Below are positions 54,897 to 63,498 of a DNA stretch of 64,000 nucleotides, in pieces. The notes under the pieces are model-generated. The model was given only the letters and a program-made list of their open reading frames with translations, did no database searches and was not told the DNA's origin. The position numbers were made by a program, and so were the translations under genes. This DNA is from Patescibacteria group bacterium. Lineage in GTDB: Bacteria; Patescibacteriota; Patescibacteriia; Patescibacteriales; GWC2-42-12. Numbering within the stretch: position 1 is the stretch's first letter; every line of letters begins with the position of its first letter. The stretch spans positions 121-64,120 of the forward strand of contig JAQTVB010000002.1 of the NCBI GenBank assembly GCA_028707005.1. The letters run 5' to 3'.

Positions 54897-54955
54897 CGTC
54901 CTAACGTATCTGCGATAGGCGCGACGTTTCAATATTGCTTATCGCGTGTTAGACG
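54897..54955. repeat. attC-like site 1
   Basis: cgtcCTAACgtatctGCGATAGg...cTTATCGCgtGTTAGACg. A degenerate extra GTAAGAC core lies at 54863. Confidence 0.55.
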
Positions 54956-54971
54956 ATGTAGCTAAATTAAT

Positions 54972-55310
54972 TTATCCTAATTTACTACCATTAGGCACGT
55001 CTTTATCAGGAACTGCTAACACGACAGAACCATCATCTCTATAAAAACCGGAACACAAAAATTCAGATATTAAAGGGCCGATTTGTTTGGGCGGAAAATT
55101 AACTACTCCAATAATTTTTCTATTTAACAGATCTGCCTTTGAATATAAATCGGTTATTCTTGCGCTAGATTTTTTAATACCAATTTCTGGCCCAAAGTCC
55201 ACTTTTATTTTATAAGCAGGAATTTTTGCTTGAGGGAAATCTTCTACTTTAATAATAGTTCCGACTCGCAATTCTACTTTTTCAAATTCATTCCAATTTA
55301 TTTGTTCCAT
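54972..55310 (-). CDS. csaA: CsaA/YgjH-type tRNA-binding protein
   Basis: The 113-aa form starts at [19 protein letters not shown] (ATG at 55310). The longer ORF-track start runs through an attC-like site. Confidence 0.75.
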
Positions 55311-55339
55311 ATTGATAAAAGATAAATTTATTTGGCTAT

Positions 55340-55404
55340 GTCGCCTAACGTATCGGGATATCCGTAGTTTTTGCGACCGACGGAAGCAAAAATTAGGGCG
55401 GAGC
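55340..55404. repeat. attC-like site 2, left half (AAC core plus inner box) with a local degenerate closing stem
   Basis: gtcgCCTAACgtatCGGGATATCCG. The matching inner box CGGATATCCCG lies 310 bp away at 55677-55687. Confidence 0.5.
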
Positions 55405-55420
55405 AAAAAATATTTTAAAT

Positions 55421-55642
55421 TTATTTTAACCCCGCGATGATAACAGCTACTATTGAAACGACAAGAGCAAGTATAGATAACCATTTCTGGAAACCAAGTT
55501 GATGTTGTGCCATCTTTGTCTGATTAATTGTAGCTTCAAGCTGAAATACTTCCGCAGAGGTTGACCACTCTCCACACTTGGAACAAGCATATTTTCCGAC
55601 TGGCGTTTTTTTCCATTCATGATTACAGTTGTTTATTATCAT
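55421..55642 (-). CDS. small zinc-ribbon-like protein with a C-terminal TM helix
   Basis: 73 aa. Contains CNHEW...CSKCGEW and a hydrophobic tail. It is bounded by a perfect 24-nt inverted repeat (55405-55428 / 55644-55667). Confidence 0.45.
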
Positions 55643-55675
55643 ATAAAATAAATTTAAAATATTTTTTAAGCGAAG

Positions 55676-55743
55676 CCGGATATCCCGTGTTATACGTCCC
55701 GCAGGGTCGGAGCGAAGCGGAACCGGATATGCCGTGTTAGGCG
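55676..55743. repeat. two tandem attC-like right halves (inner box plus GTT core)
   Basis: CCGGATATCCCGtGTTATACg followed by CCGGATATGCCGtGTTAGGCg. Confidence 0.5.
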
Positions 55744-55761
55744 ATGTAAATTTGTGAGCTT

Positions 55762-56277
55762 TTATATTATTATCTCTTTTAAATCTTTTCTTGGTTTAGG
55801 ACGGGGGTCTTCATCTGGGTATCCTACTGGTATTACAAATGGAATAATATAATTTTCGGGTATATTAAGAACCTCTTTTATTTTATCACGGTATATCCAT
55901 GCAACAAAAACGGTGCCAAGCCCTAATTCAGTAGCACGCAAAACAAGGAAAGAAGTGGCTATTGATAAATCTATATAAGCGTAATTAACGGGCGTCTCAT
56001 CAACGTCTGTGCTTTTTGGATATTGAGACGGATCGGCACAACAGATAATAATCAAGGGCGCGTCGTTAACATAGGACTGTTTGAAAGCTCCCGCTTTGAT
56101 TAGCTTATTTTTAACGACCCCATCTTTGACGATAAAATATTTATGAGATTGCACGTTTTTGGCCGATGGTGCTTTTCTCGCGGCATCAAGAAGTTCATTA
56201 ATAACTTCATCAGAAATCTGTTTCTTTTTATATTTCCTTATACTTTTTCTTATATTAATTGCTTCTCGAATATCCAT
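55762..56277 (-). CDS. nitroreductase-family flavoprotein
   Basis: 171 aa. N-terminal RKSIRKY...PSAKNVQ is typical of the nitroreductase fold. Confidence 0.85.
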   Translation of the reverse strand: MDIREAINIRKSIRKYKKKQISDEVINELLDAARKAPSAKNVQSHKYFIVKDGVVKNKLIKAGAFKQSYVNDAPLIIICCADPSQYPKSTDVDETPVNYAYIDLSIATSFLVLRATELGLGTVFVAWIYRDKIKEVLNIPENYIIPFVIPVGYPDEDPRPKPRKDLKEIII

Positions 56278-56316
56278 ATAGTCTAAGTTTGAGTTTTAAA
56301 GCTCACAAATTTATTT

Positions 56317-56373
56317 CCGATAATGGCTTCGGGATAAGCGAAGTGACCGGAGGGCTTTCGGAGCCTTATTATG
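56317..56373. repeat. attC-like site (short variant) overlapping the 3' end of the Fic gene
   Basis: ccgATAATGGCTTCGggataagcgaagtgaccggagggctttCGGAGCCTTATTATg. Confidence 0.4.
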
Positions 56374-61978: not shown

Positions 61979-62206
61979 TTAAAATTCCAACTTCTCTTTT
62001 GGTATCCAAAATTCGCCCGTATTGTCTTTGACTAATACCTTTTCGCCCTCAATTTTAATCACTTCTACAACGGCTGTCGGATATAGATCGTTATGGGCAT
62101 ATCTTTTTTTAGTATCTACATATTCTTGCTCTGAAGTTTTAATAACATCGGTAACTCTCGCGAATTTTGGTTTTTCTTTTTCTGATGAAAATTTTAACTC
62201 TGGCAT
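61979..62206 (-). CDS. small hypothetical protein
   Basis: 75-aa ORF. No motif recognised. Confidence 0.4.
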   Translation of the reverse strand: MPELKFSSEKEKPKFARVTDVIKTSEQEYVDTKKRYAHNDLYPTAVVEVIKIEGEKVLVKDNTGEFWIPKEKLEF

Positions 62207-62408
62207 AAGTTATTGTTAATGGTTAAAAATTTTTTGTAAATTTCGCCACAACGTTTACGAGTATCCGAAATTTTATTTACTCTACCTTATTATTGTTGAT
62301 AATTAAAGAATAAATAAAATTTGCGCGGAGCAGATGAGGCTGAATTTATAATTTTTACCTTAGATTAGCTGTTTTTTAATTTTTTGATTTGCCGGTGGAT
62401 AATTTAGC

Positions 62409-62436
62409 TTGACATTGGCTATGAATATGCTATATT
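62409..62436 (+). promoter_or_regulatory. near-consensus promoter (TTGACA-16-TGcTATATT)
   Basis: TTGACA at 62409-62414, extended -10 TGCTATATT at 62428-62436. Same architecture as the promoter at 57902. Confidence 0.5.
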
Positions 62437-62442
62437 GATTAC

Positions 62443-62520
62443 AGAGTATCAATCCGTGGAACCTCACCAAAGGTGGACCTCTGAAAACATCTTCTTCTCG
62501 CGAAGAGGGTGTTTTTGTTT
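62443..62520 (+). ncRNA. candidate ~75-nt small RNA whose 5' end is antisense to the anticodon arm of the adjacent tRNA-like gene
   Basis: Predicted start about 7 nt after the -10 element. 62444-62459 (GAGUAUCAAUCCGUGG) can pair with 62581-62596 (15 Watson-Crick pairs plus 1 G-U). Terminator: 10-bp stem 62488-62497/62502-62511 followed by a T-run. Confidence 0.4.
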
Positions 62521-62556
62521 GGCTTTTTTCATGCTATTATTAATTTGCGGCGGATC

Positions 62557-62641
62557 GGAGAGTAAAGCGCCTCGGAGGCGCCATGGATTGATACTCCGTT
62601 GGTTCGCTTTTGCGAATGAGGTTCGACTCCTCTGCTCTCCG
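62557..62641 (+). tRNA. non-canonical tRNA-like gene: 8-bp acceptor, 4-bp T stem, long variable arm, anticodon GAU, discriminator G (allo-tRNA-like)
   Basis: Manual fold. Acceptor 62557-62564/62633-62640. D arm 62567-62581. Anticodon stem 62583-62587/62595-62599 with loop UUGAUAC. Variable arm hairpin 62602-62617. T arm GAGG-UUCGACU-CCUC at 62618-62632. Confidence 0.55.
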
Positions 62642-62653
62642 CCGCGCTAAAAG

Positions 62654-62677
62654 CCATCTCACTTTGAGGTGGTTTTT
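62654..62677 (+). terminator. rho-independent terminator after the tRNA-like gene
   Basis: CCATCTC/GAGGTGG stem followed by T5. Confidence 0.6.
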
Positions 62678-62811
62678 AGTTGCTCGCAAATCAAAAATTA
62701 AAAAACAATAAAGCAAAAAAACTATAAATTCAGCCTTATCTGCGCAGTCGGATACTCGTTGTTATGCGCCGTAATAAAAAGCCAATTCATTAAAATGATT
62801 TTGGCAATTTA

Positions 62812-63243
62812 TTATACAATTTTTCTTCTGTTTATGCGCTCCACTGAGTATTCTCCTTGATTTCCTGGCGTTTCCCCTGTTGTTTCTTCTAATATTTTTC
62901 TGAACTCTTTCGTAATTTGACCGGCGATCGCGTCTTCATCAACATCAGTATTGCCAGCAAGCTTATCGTGGAATCTTTGTACTTTGTCAGTATTACCGAA
63001 CTTTGCAAAATCCGTCAACGATTTTATTATTTCACTCATAACAGTAAGAAAGCGAGCATAATTCTCACGATTTTGAGGAGCAACCAGATGGTTTTGAGCT
63101 GCTCGTGGCTCCTTTACAAAATTATTTATATATTCATGAATGCTTAAAAAAGCGGCGATTGCTTTTTCTGGGCACCCCTCTTGGCGCATTTGTCTTGTCA
63201 GATCGAGAGTTGTGTTTTTTAAGTTTTCTAAACGTCCCTCCAA
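62812..63243 (-). CDS. hypothetical protein
   Basis: 143-aa ORF. It is flanked by a cassette-specific inverted repeat (62761-62783 vs 63384-63406, 22 of 23 nt). Confidence 0.45.
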   Translation of the reverse strand: MEGRLENLKNTTLDLTRQMRQEGCPEKAIAAFLSIHEYINNFVKEPRAAQNHLVAPQNRENYARFLTVMSEIIKSLTDFAKFGNTDKVQRFHDKLAGNTDVDEDAIAGQITKEFRKILEETTGETPGNQGEYSVERINRRKIV

Positions 63244-63396
63244 TCTTACCTCTAAAGGTTTCTCTTTTATTACCTCTGATGGTATTTTTCCATAATAGTG
63301 ATGGTTATTAATGTATTAATGTAATAAGTTATTTCGACCTCACCAAATAAATTGCCAAAATTATTATTTAAAAAATAAAAGAGGCTTTTTATTATG

Positions 63397-63498
63397 GCGC
63401 ATAACGTATCCGAATATACGAAGATTTATTGAGCGTAGCGAAATAAAATTTCGGCGAGGGGCGGGCTGAGCCCCGAGCCGTATATTCTTTGTTAAACG
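63397..63498. repeat. attC-like site 7
   Basis: GGCGCATAACgtatccGAATATACG...CGTATATTCtttGTTAAACg. Confidence 0.55.

Follow-up and report, generated by a model that had tools for sequence, protein, structure and literature searches.

We analysed a window of 64,000 nucleotides (nt) from a Patescibacteria group bacterium (assembly GCA_028707005.1, contig JAQTVB010000002.1, positions 121 to 64,120 of the forward strand), in which palindromic sites alternate with open reading frames (ORFs) close to the right end. This region is probably part of a chromosomal cassette array of integron-like type in a bacterium of the Patescibacteria (candidate phyla radiation, CPR), namely the 8.6 kb closest to the recombinase, and its sites carry a different structural mark of polarity. 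The ORFs are in the normal orientation, as judged from the side of the recombinase in related loci, from the attI-like site, from the cassette boundaries and from the strand signatures of the sites; it is the bulge of the folded site that has changed sides, onto the arm with the crossover-point AAC.

Hairpin sites of the window

From 1 to 53.8 kb of the window the genes are on the + strand and the GC skew is positive; from 53.9 to 63.3 kb every substantial ORF is on the – strand and the G+C content falls. Eight hairpin sites (S1 to S8, Table 1), all in one orientation, separate the ORFs between positions 54,897 and 63,498. The intact sites read, on the + strand, RYRYAAC, four nucleotides (GTAT or GTTT), an arm of 10-12 nt, a variable interior, the complementary arm, a single T and GTTRYRY. 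The spacers on the AAC and GTT sides are GTAT and T in S1, S2, S5, S6 and S8 and GTTT and T in S7, an excess of 3 nt on the AAC side in every intact site. A preliminary description of this DNA had already reported an AAC-side spacer longer by about 3 nt, and its readings of 5 versus 2 and 6 versus 3 nt are equivalent to ours. S1, S5, S6 and S8 are 48-120 nt long, S2 and S7 extend over 345-514 nt and enclose genes, and S3 and S4 are decayed. The motif YAACGTWT is present six times on the + strand of the 8.8-kb array, compared with two occurrences on the + strand and three on the – strand of the other 55 kb.

All 11 ORFs between S1 and S8, of 73 to 454 amino acids (aa), are on the – strand, while the sole + strand ORF, richer in G+C, begins at position 63693 and runs off the end of the window. 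The preliminary description had the strands right, including that of the G+C-rich ORF at 63693 as the only one on the + strand, and counted 12 complete cassette ORFs.

A conserved bulge on the AAC arm

A scan with a pattern of two half-sites, applied to one genome per species, identified 13 loci; the titles of 10 name Patescibacteria or a CPR candidate phylum, and those of the other 3 say just 'bacterium'. Related loci are given here by numbers with the prefix L. Constrained folding, in which only the AAC/GTT pairs were forced, resulted in a common structure for 34 of 35 non-redundant sites from 21 Patescibacteria loci: three base pairs and a G·T pair come first, then the AAC arm bulges out by 3 nt (TAT, TTT, TTC or TCC) with nothing on the facing arm, and an uninterrupted stem of 11 bp leads into a multiloop. 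The RNAalifold consensus agrees with this structure. Pairing in the L stem reaches 98.9%, and 10 of the 11 pairs vary on both sides between sites, with AAC and GTT unchanged in 40 of 40 sites.

An unbiased scan of the 13 loci, with every combination of spacers of 0 to 8, gave 22 hairpins, of which 13 had spacers of exactly 4 and 1 and 16 had a difference of 3 nt, whereas the shuffled control gave about one hairpin per shuffle with random spacing. The final hairpin scans demanded complementarity of the arms and pairing of the outer boxes. For loci fetched via the recombinase or attI motif only, the longer spacer was on the AAC arm, on the recombinase-sense strand, in all 12 hairpins upstream of the recombinase gene, the difference between the spacers being 3 nt in 10 and 2 nt in 2 of them. 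The sites are co-oriented inside each of the 21 loci, and the intervening ORFs are on the opposite strand in 35 cases and on the same strand in 4. The larger set of loci thus upheld the preliminary description on both counts, the consistency of the bulge and the orientation of the ORFs relative to it.

The interiors of sites from L007, L014, L012, L023 and L002 and those of S5, S6 and S8 follow a common plan, a three-way junction in which the bases at the junction are conserved (L arm, AAG, hairpin 1, TTTGGGYGA, hairpin 2, GAACC, L arm); tandem G·A mismatches and GCGAAGC mini-hairpins are possible on the + strand only. A search of Rfam did not find a known RNA family for the sites.

Comparison with the polarity of canonical attC sites

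The bottom strand of a canonical attC site is the one recombined, and its extrahelical bases occupy the arm opposite its own 5'-AAC-3'; this strand is more stable than the top strand by ~2 kcal/mol, is rich in G and purines and usually has a GAA loop (PMC5027507). As a canonical control we used the attC site of aadA1, in a sequence 100% identical to plasmid R100. Folding of this site placed the single-base bulges on the GTT arm of the bottom strand, that is, on the AAC arm of the coding strand, whereas the extra bases of the window sites are on the GTT arm of the coding (–) strand. The comparison showed that the asymmetry relative to the ORFs is truly inverted. The earlier claim that the ORFs lie antisense to the attC polarity is correct for the arm that carries the bulge, which is opposite to the canonical one, and is not supported for the functional polarity, by which the ORFs are in the normal orientation.

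Two other features of canonical sites are missing. There are no single extrahelical bases, the 11-bp stem being uninterrupted in 34 of 35 sites, with one 3-nt bulge on the AAC arm instead, and the unpaired central spacer of ~5 nt on both arms is replaced by 4 versus 1 nt, with pairing possible between the first G and the T.

When folded, the + strand is more stable than the – strand in 32 of 33 sites, by 2.9 kcal/mol on average (-11.0 versus -8.3 kcal/mol for S1), and the GC skew of the sites on this strand is +0.12. The GCGWAGC mini-hairpin was found nine times on the + strand and never on its complement, and in our reading the interiors of the + strand have conserved purine-rich junction motifs. 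The stability, the skew and the GAA loops of the + strand correspond to properties reported for the bottom strand of canonical attC sites (PMC5027507).

Cassette boundaries

Before every cassette ORF of L019 there is a unit of ~190 bp, in four copies at least 98% identical (6094-6286, 7738-7922, 8878-9053 and 9681-9889), each of which ends in a purine-rich hairpin and the junction AAC. The copies are identical as far as ...GGCATAAC, after which three of them enter different hairpins and the fourth enters the attI-like sequence. Comparison of the cassette formed by S5 and a Fic gene with L013 by blastn showed 88.9% identity over 1500 bp, with the homology starting from the AAC at 58865; shorter matches in L003, L001, L011, L008, L012 and L005 start at or within ten bases of this AAC, and the left flanks of the matching sequences are unrelated. 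An alignment of five + oriented rows (the window, L013, L008, L012 and L005) likewise put the left edge of the shared cassette exactly at AAC 58865; rows of the minus-oriented loci L003, L001, L011, L010 and L009 were left out of it, these loci being compared by blastn. The homology between S8 and the recombinase-proximal site of L007 breaks at the same point, the + strand AAC. Since the breaks are at AAC, each hairpin belongs to the ORF on its right, which is the ORF preceding the hairpin on the coding strand. As judged from these alignments, the crossover would take place in or beside the + strand AAC, as in integrons. Strains with identical flanks (L018 versus L019-21) differ by a block of 1.6 kb bounded by cassette repeats.

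Recombination of the – strand, which would restore the canonical rule for the bulge, was considered and rejected, since it is the + strand AAC that marks both the boundaries of the cassettes and the junction with attI. An additional segment of ~52 nt was observed in some copies of the ~190-bp unit in L020, L021 and L018, and S3 is homologous to part of this repeated leader unit in L018 and L019.

It could be asked whether the hairpins are transcription terminators, or repeats of the repetitive extragenic palindromic type, located after – strand genes in an ordinary variable genomic island. Every hairpin is indeed just 3' of an ORF and the hairpins are stable, but AAC and GTT are invariant while the stem covaries, no T-tract was found after the hairpins, and the unit of hairpin plus gene is present in different genomes with breakpoints exactly at AAC. 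The recurrence of the AAC junction at a conserved site upstream of the recombinase gene and the variation of cassette content between otherwise identical strains also argue against this explanation, which we consider extremely improbable.

A divergent recombinase gene and an attI-like site in related loci

In one of the 13 pattern-scan loci, L007 (Magasanikbacteria), a tyrosine recombinase gene is located 676 bp to the right of the site and reads away from it. Its homologues form a large family of CPR proteins of 272-273 aa. In their contexts, from Moranbacteria, relatives of Parcubacteria GW2011_GWC2_42_12 and others, the ORFs directly upstream of the recombinase are on the opposite strand, and the accompanying hairpins have the same orientation as those of the window. 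All 12 of the 12 hairpins upstream of a related recombinase gene belong to an array divergent from a tyrosine recombinase of 273 aa, and the recombinase of the relatives begins 660-780 bp past the last site. An adjacent and divergent recombinase with an attI-like site in between was found in L007, L014, L016, L018-24 and L028-31.

The attI-like site (...RYAAC, the junction, then TCGTTATTATGCGAAT and, ~25 nt on, TGTATRTTRTGCGAA) is located ~55 bp upstream of the start codon of the recombinase in seven of seven contexts and contains a short palindrome, YAAC-TC-GTTAT, and two direct TTATGCGAA repeats. A metagenome scan with the attI-like motif gave 12 loci, and the next gene was that of the recombinase in 10 of the 11 that could be evaluated, truncated after 56 aa in two of these 10 (L033 and L034); L027 has the motif without a recombinase gene after it. 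A duplex core site, with an inverted repeat and a centre of 6-8 bp, was not evident in the sequence near each AAC.

The glycosyltransferases of the left flank of the window share their order and 68% identity with the ones of L019, and this synteny leads us to expect an attI-like site (AAC, the junction, then TCNTTATTRTGCGAAT ... TGTATRTTNTGCGAA) and a recombinase gene of ~273 aa at ~64.2-64.6 kb, on the + strand. Most of the 120 best homologues of the recombinase are on contigs of just 1-3 kb, which suggests that assemblies break at arrays.

The position of the recombinase bears on the possibility that the sites are ordinary attC sites with the window + strand as their top strand, recombined by a conventional IntI encoded elsewhere, and that the cassettes are inverted and self-promoted. 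The 5' (AAC) arm of the + strand does carry the extra bases, like that of canonical top strands, and a few strong promoters are present inside the array. The sites have no integrase within the window and are formally a cluster of attC sites lacking an integrase nearby (CALIN), but the window ends 500 bp after S8, short of the 660-780 bp at which the recombinase of the relatives begins. However, these promoters run along the + strand, away from the direction of the ORFs. Each hairpin accompanies the ORF to its right, with homology ending at the + strand AAC, the recombinase and the attI-like site are to the right of the ORFs and divergent from them in every related locus, the + strand has the signatures of a bottom strand, the L stem is without single extrahelical bases, and none of the fetched loci gave an IntI-type protein. 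The data contradict both a canonical IntI at the left end of the arrays and cassette junctions at the GTT end, either of which would have favoured this possibility; it is very unlikely. Internal promoters, which the preliminary description had offered as one of three explanations, are not needed to account for the orientation, the ORFs being oriented for expression from the recombinase-proximal end.

An XerA-like recombinase without the IntI insertion

The closest solved structures to the recombinase are those of archaeal XerA, 5HXY (6.8e-40) and 4A8E (7.9e-40), which are colinear with it end to end, whereas the alignment with VchIntIA (2A3V) falls into two blocks (residues 9-182 with 8-184, and 193-272 with 238-317). 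Ten residues of the recombinase face the 53-residue insertion region of VchIntIA, and ~43 residues are absent. The scores with the NCBIfam XerA model NF040815 (cut-off 220) were 224.0 bits for P0007, 225.9 for P0070, 217.2 for P0034 and 219.8 for P0001. Those with the integron integrase model TIGR02249 were 205-211 bits versus a cut-off of 265, with the match split in two stretches.

The IntI-specific insertion touches the extrahelical bases in the structure of VchIntIA with the Vibrio cholerae repeat (VCR) (PMC3053210), and the additional domain of IntI around patch III (I2 helix and beta-4,5) is defining and necessary (PMC9668308, PMC8138268). The recombinase adjoining the related arrays does not have this domain, and its absence is in keeping with sites that have no extrahelical bases to be read. 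Two further explanations of the preliminary description are supported: that the recombinase follows a different strand rule relative to the bulge, and that the system is a different one that only resembles integrons, the latter being the best supported of the three.

The same properties of the enzyme also bear on an exploitation of Xer and dif, in which the 273-aa enzyme is the housekeeping dimer resolvase, the 'attI' is dif and the cassettes are integrating elements that carry hairpins. This explanation overlaps in mechanism with an integron-like array and differs from it in the ownership of the recombinase. The CTX phage integrates in this manner, its folded single-stranded attP being recombined with dif by one Xer-catalysed strand exchange, and the dif site of some bacteria is just upstream of xer. 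The enzyme passes the XerA model, is colinear with the XerA structures, is extremely conserved and sits among core genes, and the attI contains the short YAAC-TC-GTTAT palindrome; in addition, the tyrosine recombinases of candidate phyla have been classed as Xer-related (PMC8138268). Nevertheless, the flanking genes of L018 have the same orientation on both sides, with no suggestion of a replication terminus, cassette sequence in each case takes the place of the left arm of the putative dif, and no full dif-like palindrome of 28-30 bp was seen. We regard this explanation as unlikely, although it carries more weight than the other alternatives.

Proposed mechanism and points that weigh against it

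In the integron-like array that we favour, a cassette would consist of a – strand ORF followed by its own hairpin. On the non-coding (+) strand the site has an R box (RYRYAAC paired with GTTRYRY), then, directly 3' of the AAC, a G·T pair and a 3-nt bulge of the type T-W-Y, an 11-bp L stem that pairs in all sites although its sequence varies, and a branched interior that is variable. The + strand of the cassette would fold, and the XerA-like tyrosine recombinase of 273 aa, whose divergent gene would be to the right of the array, just past the end of the window, would bind the R and L duplexes, between which the G·T pair and the 3-nt bulge form the link. Cleavage would occur in or next to AAC, the cleaved single strand would be exchanged with the double-stranded attI-like site ~55 bp upstream of the recombinase gene, and the product would be resolved by replication, as proposed for integrons. 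The bulge would be the obvious candidate for the mark that sets the polarity, because it is present on one strand and on one side of the cleavage point only.

Several observations weigh against this proposal. The window ends 500 bp past S8, which leaves its own recombinase and attI out of view, and tblastn with IntI1 and XerD queries found no tyrosine recombinase in the 64 kb. A look-up for exact products of window proteins, the nicotinate phosphoribosyltransferase among them, gave no record by which the contig could have been extended. The recombinase family is 70-85% identical across CPR classes and located among housekeeping genes; it may be the Xer of the cell, and adjacency alone is no proof that it acts on the hairpins. 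S3, S4 and the junction between the Fic and NAPRTase genes are cassette junctions without an intact site, and some of the array may have lost its mobility. The Fic cassette shared with L013 has its right end at 60363, which is not an AAC junction. The alignments place the crossover no more finely than the shared AAC, and the strand that would be cleaved is one that we infer. The ends of the 1.6-kb indel are inside the 190-bp repeats, at least 98% identical, so homologous recombination is an equally possible source of it. Finally, the pattern used to find the first 13 loci already contained the 4/1 spacing, which makes part of the pairing statistics circular, the 98.9% pairing is partly built in by the selection of sites for arm complementarity, and the set of hairpins independent of the pattern is small (n=12).

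Cassette genes and other features of the array

The coordinates of the sites and ORFs are given in Table 1.

Table 1. Hairpin sites, cassette ORFs and neighbouring features at the right end of the window
Feature	Start	End	Strand	Details
Two ORFs left of S1	53877	54806	–	tRNA_bind, 107 aa, and membrane protein, 194 aa; right of conserved glycosyltransferase gene
S1	54896	54957	+	AAC 54903, GTT 54950; TCGTCCTAAC-GTAT-CTGCGATAGGC...GCTTATCGCG-T-GTTAGACGA; one extra 1-nt bulge
tRNA_bind domain cassette ORF	54972	55310	–	112 aa from internal ATG
S2 (giant)	55340	55745	+	AAC 55347, GTT 55689-55691; GCCTAAC-GTAT-CGGGATATCCG ... CGGATATCCCG-T-GTTATAC
S2, second alternative 3' half			+	CGGATATGCCG-T-GTTAGGC, GTT 55736-55738
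73-aa ORF inside S2	55421	55642	–	zinc-ribbon-like segment and transmembrane segment; no significant Pfam hit
Nitroreductase family cassette ORF	55762	56277	–	PF00881, 2e-25
S3 (degenerate)	56314	56368	+	GATAAT-GGCT-TCGGGATAAGCG...; AAC mutated to AAT; between nitroreductase and Fic ORFs
Fic/DOC family cassette ORF	56369	57427	–	352 aa
102-aa cassette ORF	57500	57808	–	no family assigned
S4 (degenerate)	57828	57985	+	AAC 57834; GCCTAAC-GTTT-CGGTATAAGCG; 3' half decayed (TATACC-ACAC-TTAGCG)
139-aa cassette ORF	57994	58413	–	no family assigned
NUDIX hydrolase cassette ORF	58443	58835	–	
S5	58858	58962	+	AAC 58865, GTT 58955; GCAGAAC-GTAT-CGCTATATCCG...CGGATATAGCG-T-GTTATAT; GCGAAGC mini-hairpin in interior
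Fic_N + Fic cassette ORF	59086	60186	–	366 aa; moves together with S5
Nicotinate phosphoribosyltransferase (NAPRTase) ORF	60366	61730	–	own hairpin absent; fused to Fic cassette
S6	61831	61964	+	AAC 61838, GTT 61957; ATATAAC-GTAT-CCGAATATACGG...CCGTATATTCGG-T-GTTAGCT
75-aa cassette ORF	61979	62206	–	no family assigned
S7 (giant)	62243	62770	+	AAC 62250, GTT 62763; CCACAAC-GTTT-ACGAGTATCCG ... CGGATACTCGT-T-GTTATGC
143-aa cassette ORF	62812	63243	–	no family assigned; cassette with ~55-bp terminal inverted repeats
S8	63396	63500	+	AAC 63403, GTT 63493; GCATAAC-GTAT-CCGAATATACG...CGTATATTCTT-T-GTTAAAC
Recombinase-nearest cassette body	63494	64000	+	purine-rich conserved segment (GTTAAACGACCCGA...GGCGCGACTGAAAGGAGCGAG); promoter-like TTGACT-18-TAAATA at ~63616-63645; ORF from 63693

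The – strand ORFs have unrelated functions: two encode tRNA_bind proteins and two Fic proteins, others a nitroreductase, a NUDIX hydrolase and a nicotinate phosphoribosyltransferase, and several are without a family. The tRNA_bind proteins are CsaA-like paralogues, one within the array (54972-55310) and one to the left of the first recognisable site (53877-54200). No recognisable site was seen between the two ORFs to the left of S1; these could be fossil cassettes or mark where the array ends distally, and their membership is uncertain.

The inverted repeats at the ends of some cassettes exceed the 7-bp outer boxes and reach 16-55 bp (54948-54976/55321-55349, 55747-55762/56298-56313 and 62761-62813/63346-63405), from which it follows that such a cassette, when circularised, would form an outer stem far exceeding that of a canonical attC in length. 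Just upstream of the 352-aa Fic ORF an 11-nt unit, ATTCGCGCAAK, is repeated three times in tandem (57466-57499), and palindromic TTAGAATAAGG repeats are located upstream of the second Fic gene (60196-60275) and are kept in L013.

The ORF enclosed by S2 has a perfect inverted repeat of 24 bp on either side (55405-55428 and 55644-55667), and L012 likewise has an ORF inside a hairpin (5531-6025). The interior of S4 contains a perfect sigma-70-type promoter on the + strand (57902-57929, TTGACA-16-TATAAT with an upstream TG, 12 of 12 matches), which aims at the 3' end of the 139-aa – strand ORF and might give rise to a short antisense RNA. In the loop of S7, a hairpin of 514 nt, there is a + strand promoter close to the consensus (TTGACA-16-TATATT, 62409-62436), followed by a short transcript ending at a hairpin that resembles an intrinsic terminator (62482-62517). 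The same loop contains a tRNA-like gene of 87 nt (62556-62643), which ARAGORN identified as tRNA-Ile(GAT) and which gave a sub-threshold score with the Rfam tRNA-Sec model (44.1 bits for a gathering score of 47).

The cassette nearest to the recombinase is of a special recurring type, found at 63403-64000 of the window and in L007, L018/L019, L022 and L024. Cassettes of this type share a homologous hairpin, end in inverted repeats of ~65 bp (GCCCTTTTTTGAAATTTTTT with its complement) and have their own TTGACA-17-TATACT promoter, a conserved leader with a strong ribosome-binding site, a terminator and, within this constant frame, a small G+C-richer ORF in the sense of the recombinase, which is non-homologous between genomes and 64 to at least 102 aa long.

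Relation to known systems and significance

Comparison with the sedentary chromosomal integrons, such as that of Vibrio cholerae with its VCR sites, showed many common features: a divergent tyrosine recombinase with an adjacent attI-like site, co-oriented and mostly promoterless ORFs each followed by an imperfect palindrome, outer boxes similar to RYYYAAC/GTTRRRY, covarying inner boxes, a variable terminal structure, a boundary at the AAC/GTT triplet, and a non-coding strand that is stabler, G-rich and has GAA loops. Among the properties by which integrons are recognised, the system thus has attC-like outer boxes with L boxes conserved in structure, the boundary at the triplet and the site at the 3' end of the ORF. 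It departs from integrons in three defining properties, namely the additional domain of the integrase, the single extrahelical bases and the roughly symmetric unpaired central spacer. Moreover, the 4-versus-1-nt junction is on the arm of the crossover AAC, opposite to the canonical one, the pairing of the outer boxes extends over 20-65 bp in some cassettes, and some hairpins enclose genes.

The elements of the CTX-phage type, probably the closest counterpart in mechanism other than integrons, share with the array an Xer-type enzyme without the IntI insertion, which plausibly acts on a folded single-stranded hairpin resembling a core site whose central region is imperfect, and integration beside a fixed chromosomal site. 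They differ from it in that the array consists of many small gene cassettes rather than phage genomes, without replication or structural genes, and in that its integration site is directly upstream of the recombinase gene. The archaeal XerA/dif system, in which XerA carries out chromosome dimer resolution at a duplex dif, is likewise a single-recombinase system and gives the best sequence and profile match of the recombinase; however, XerA is not known for cassette arrays, and the CPR enzyme scores nearly as well on the integron integrase model, the insertion aside. The reverse integrons of Spirochaetota (Treponema) are another variant in which one orientation rule is not that of the textbook (PMC9668308). 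There, it is intI that is inverted with respect to the array, the integrase and attC sites being canonical in other ways, whereas here the orientation of the genes is canonical and it is the asymmetry of the site and the domain content of the recombinase that differ. Searches of the literature, which was covered incompletely, met with no account of integrons, attC-like sites or cassette arrays in Patescibacteria/CPR, and this is absence of evidence only.

If confirmed, these differences would have practical consequences. Annotation pipelines based on the IntI domain would not report these arrays as complete integrons, the strand might be misassigned by models in which the longer arm sets the orientation of attC sites, and the border of the array coincides with an assembly break in many metagenomes.

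On the wider proposal our judgement is evenly balanced: that Patescibacteria possess a widespread integron-like platform for gene capture, with an XerA-type recombinase devoid of the IntI insertion and a polarity set by a bulge next to the cleavage point, which would be either an independent invention or a relic of the transition from Xer to IntI. If the array is what we propose, cassette recombination would not be tied to the IntI insertion, nor strand choice to extrahelical bases on the opposite arm; a bulge beside the cleavage site and an Xer-like enzyme would suffice, providing a natural counter-example for studies of strand selectivity. It would also bear on the origin of integron integrases from Xer-type enzymes, as the CPR protein, the missing domain aside, scores almost equally on the IntI and XerA models, and it would reveal a route of gene flux in a very large uncultivated radiation with minimal genomes.

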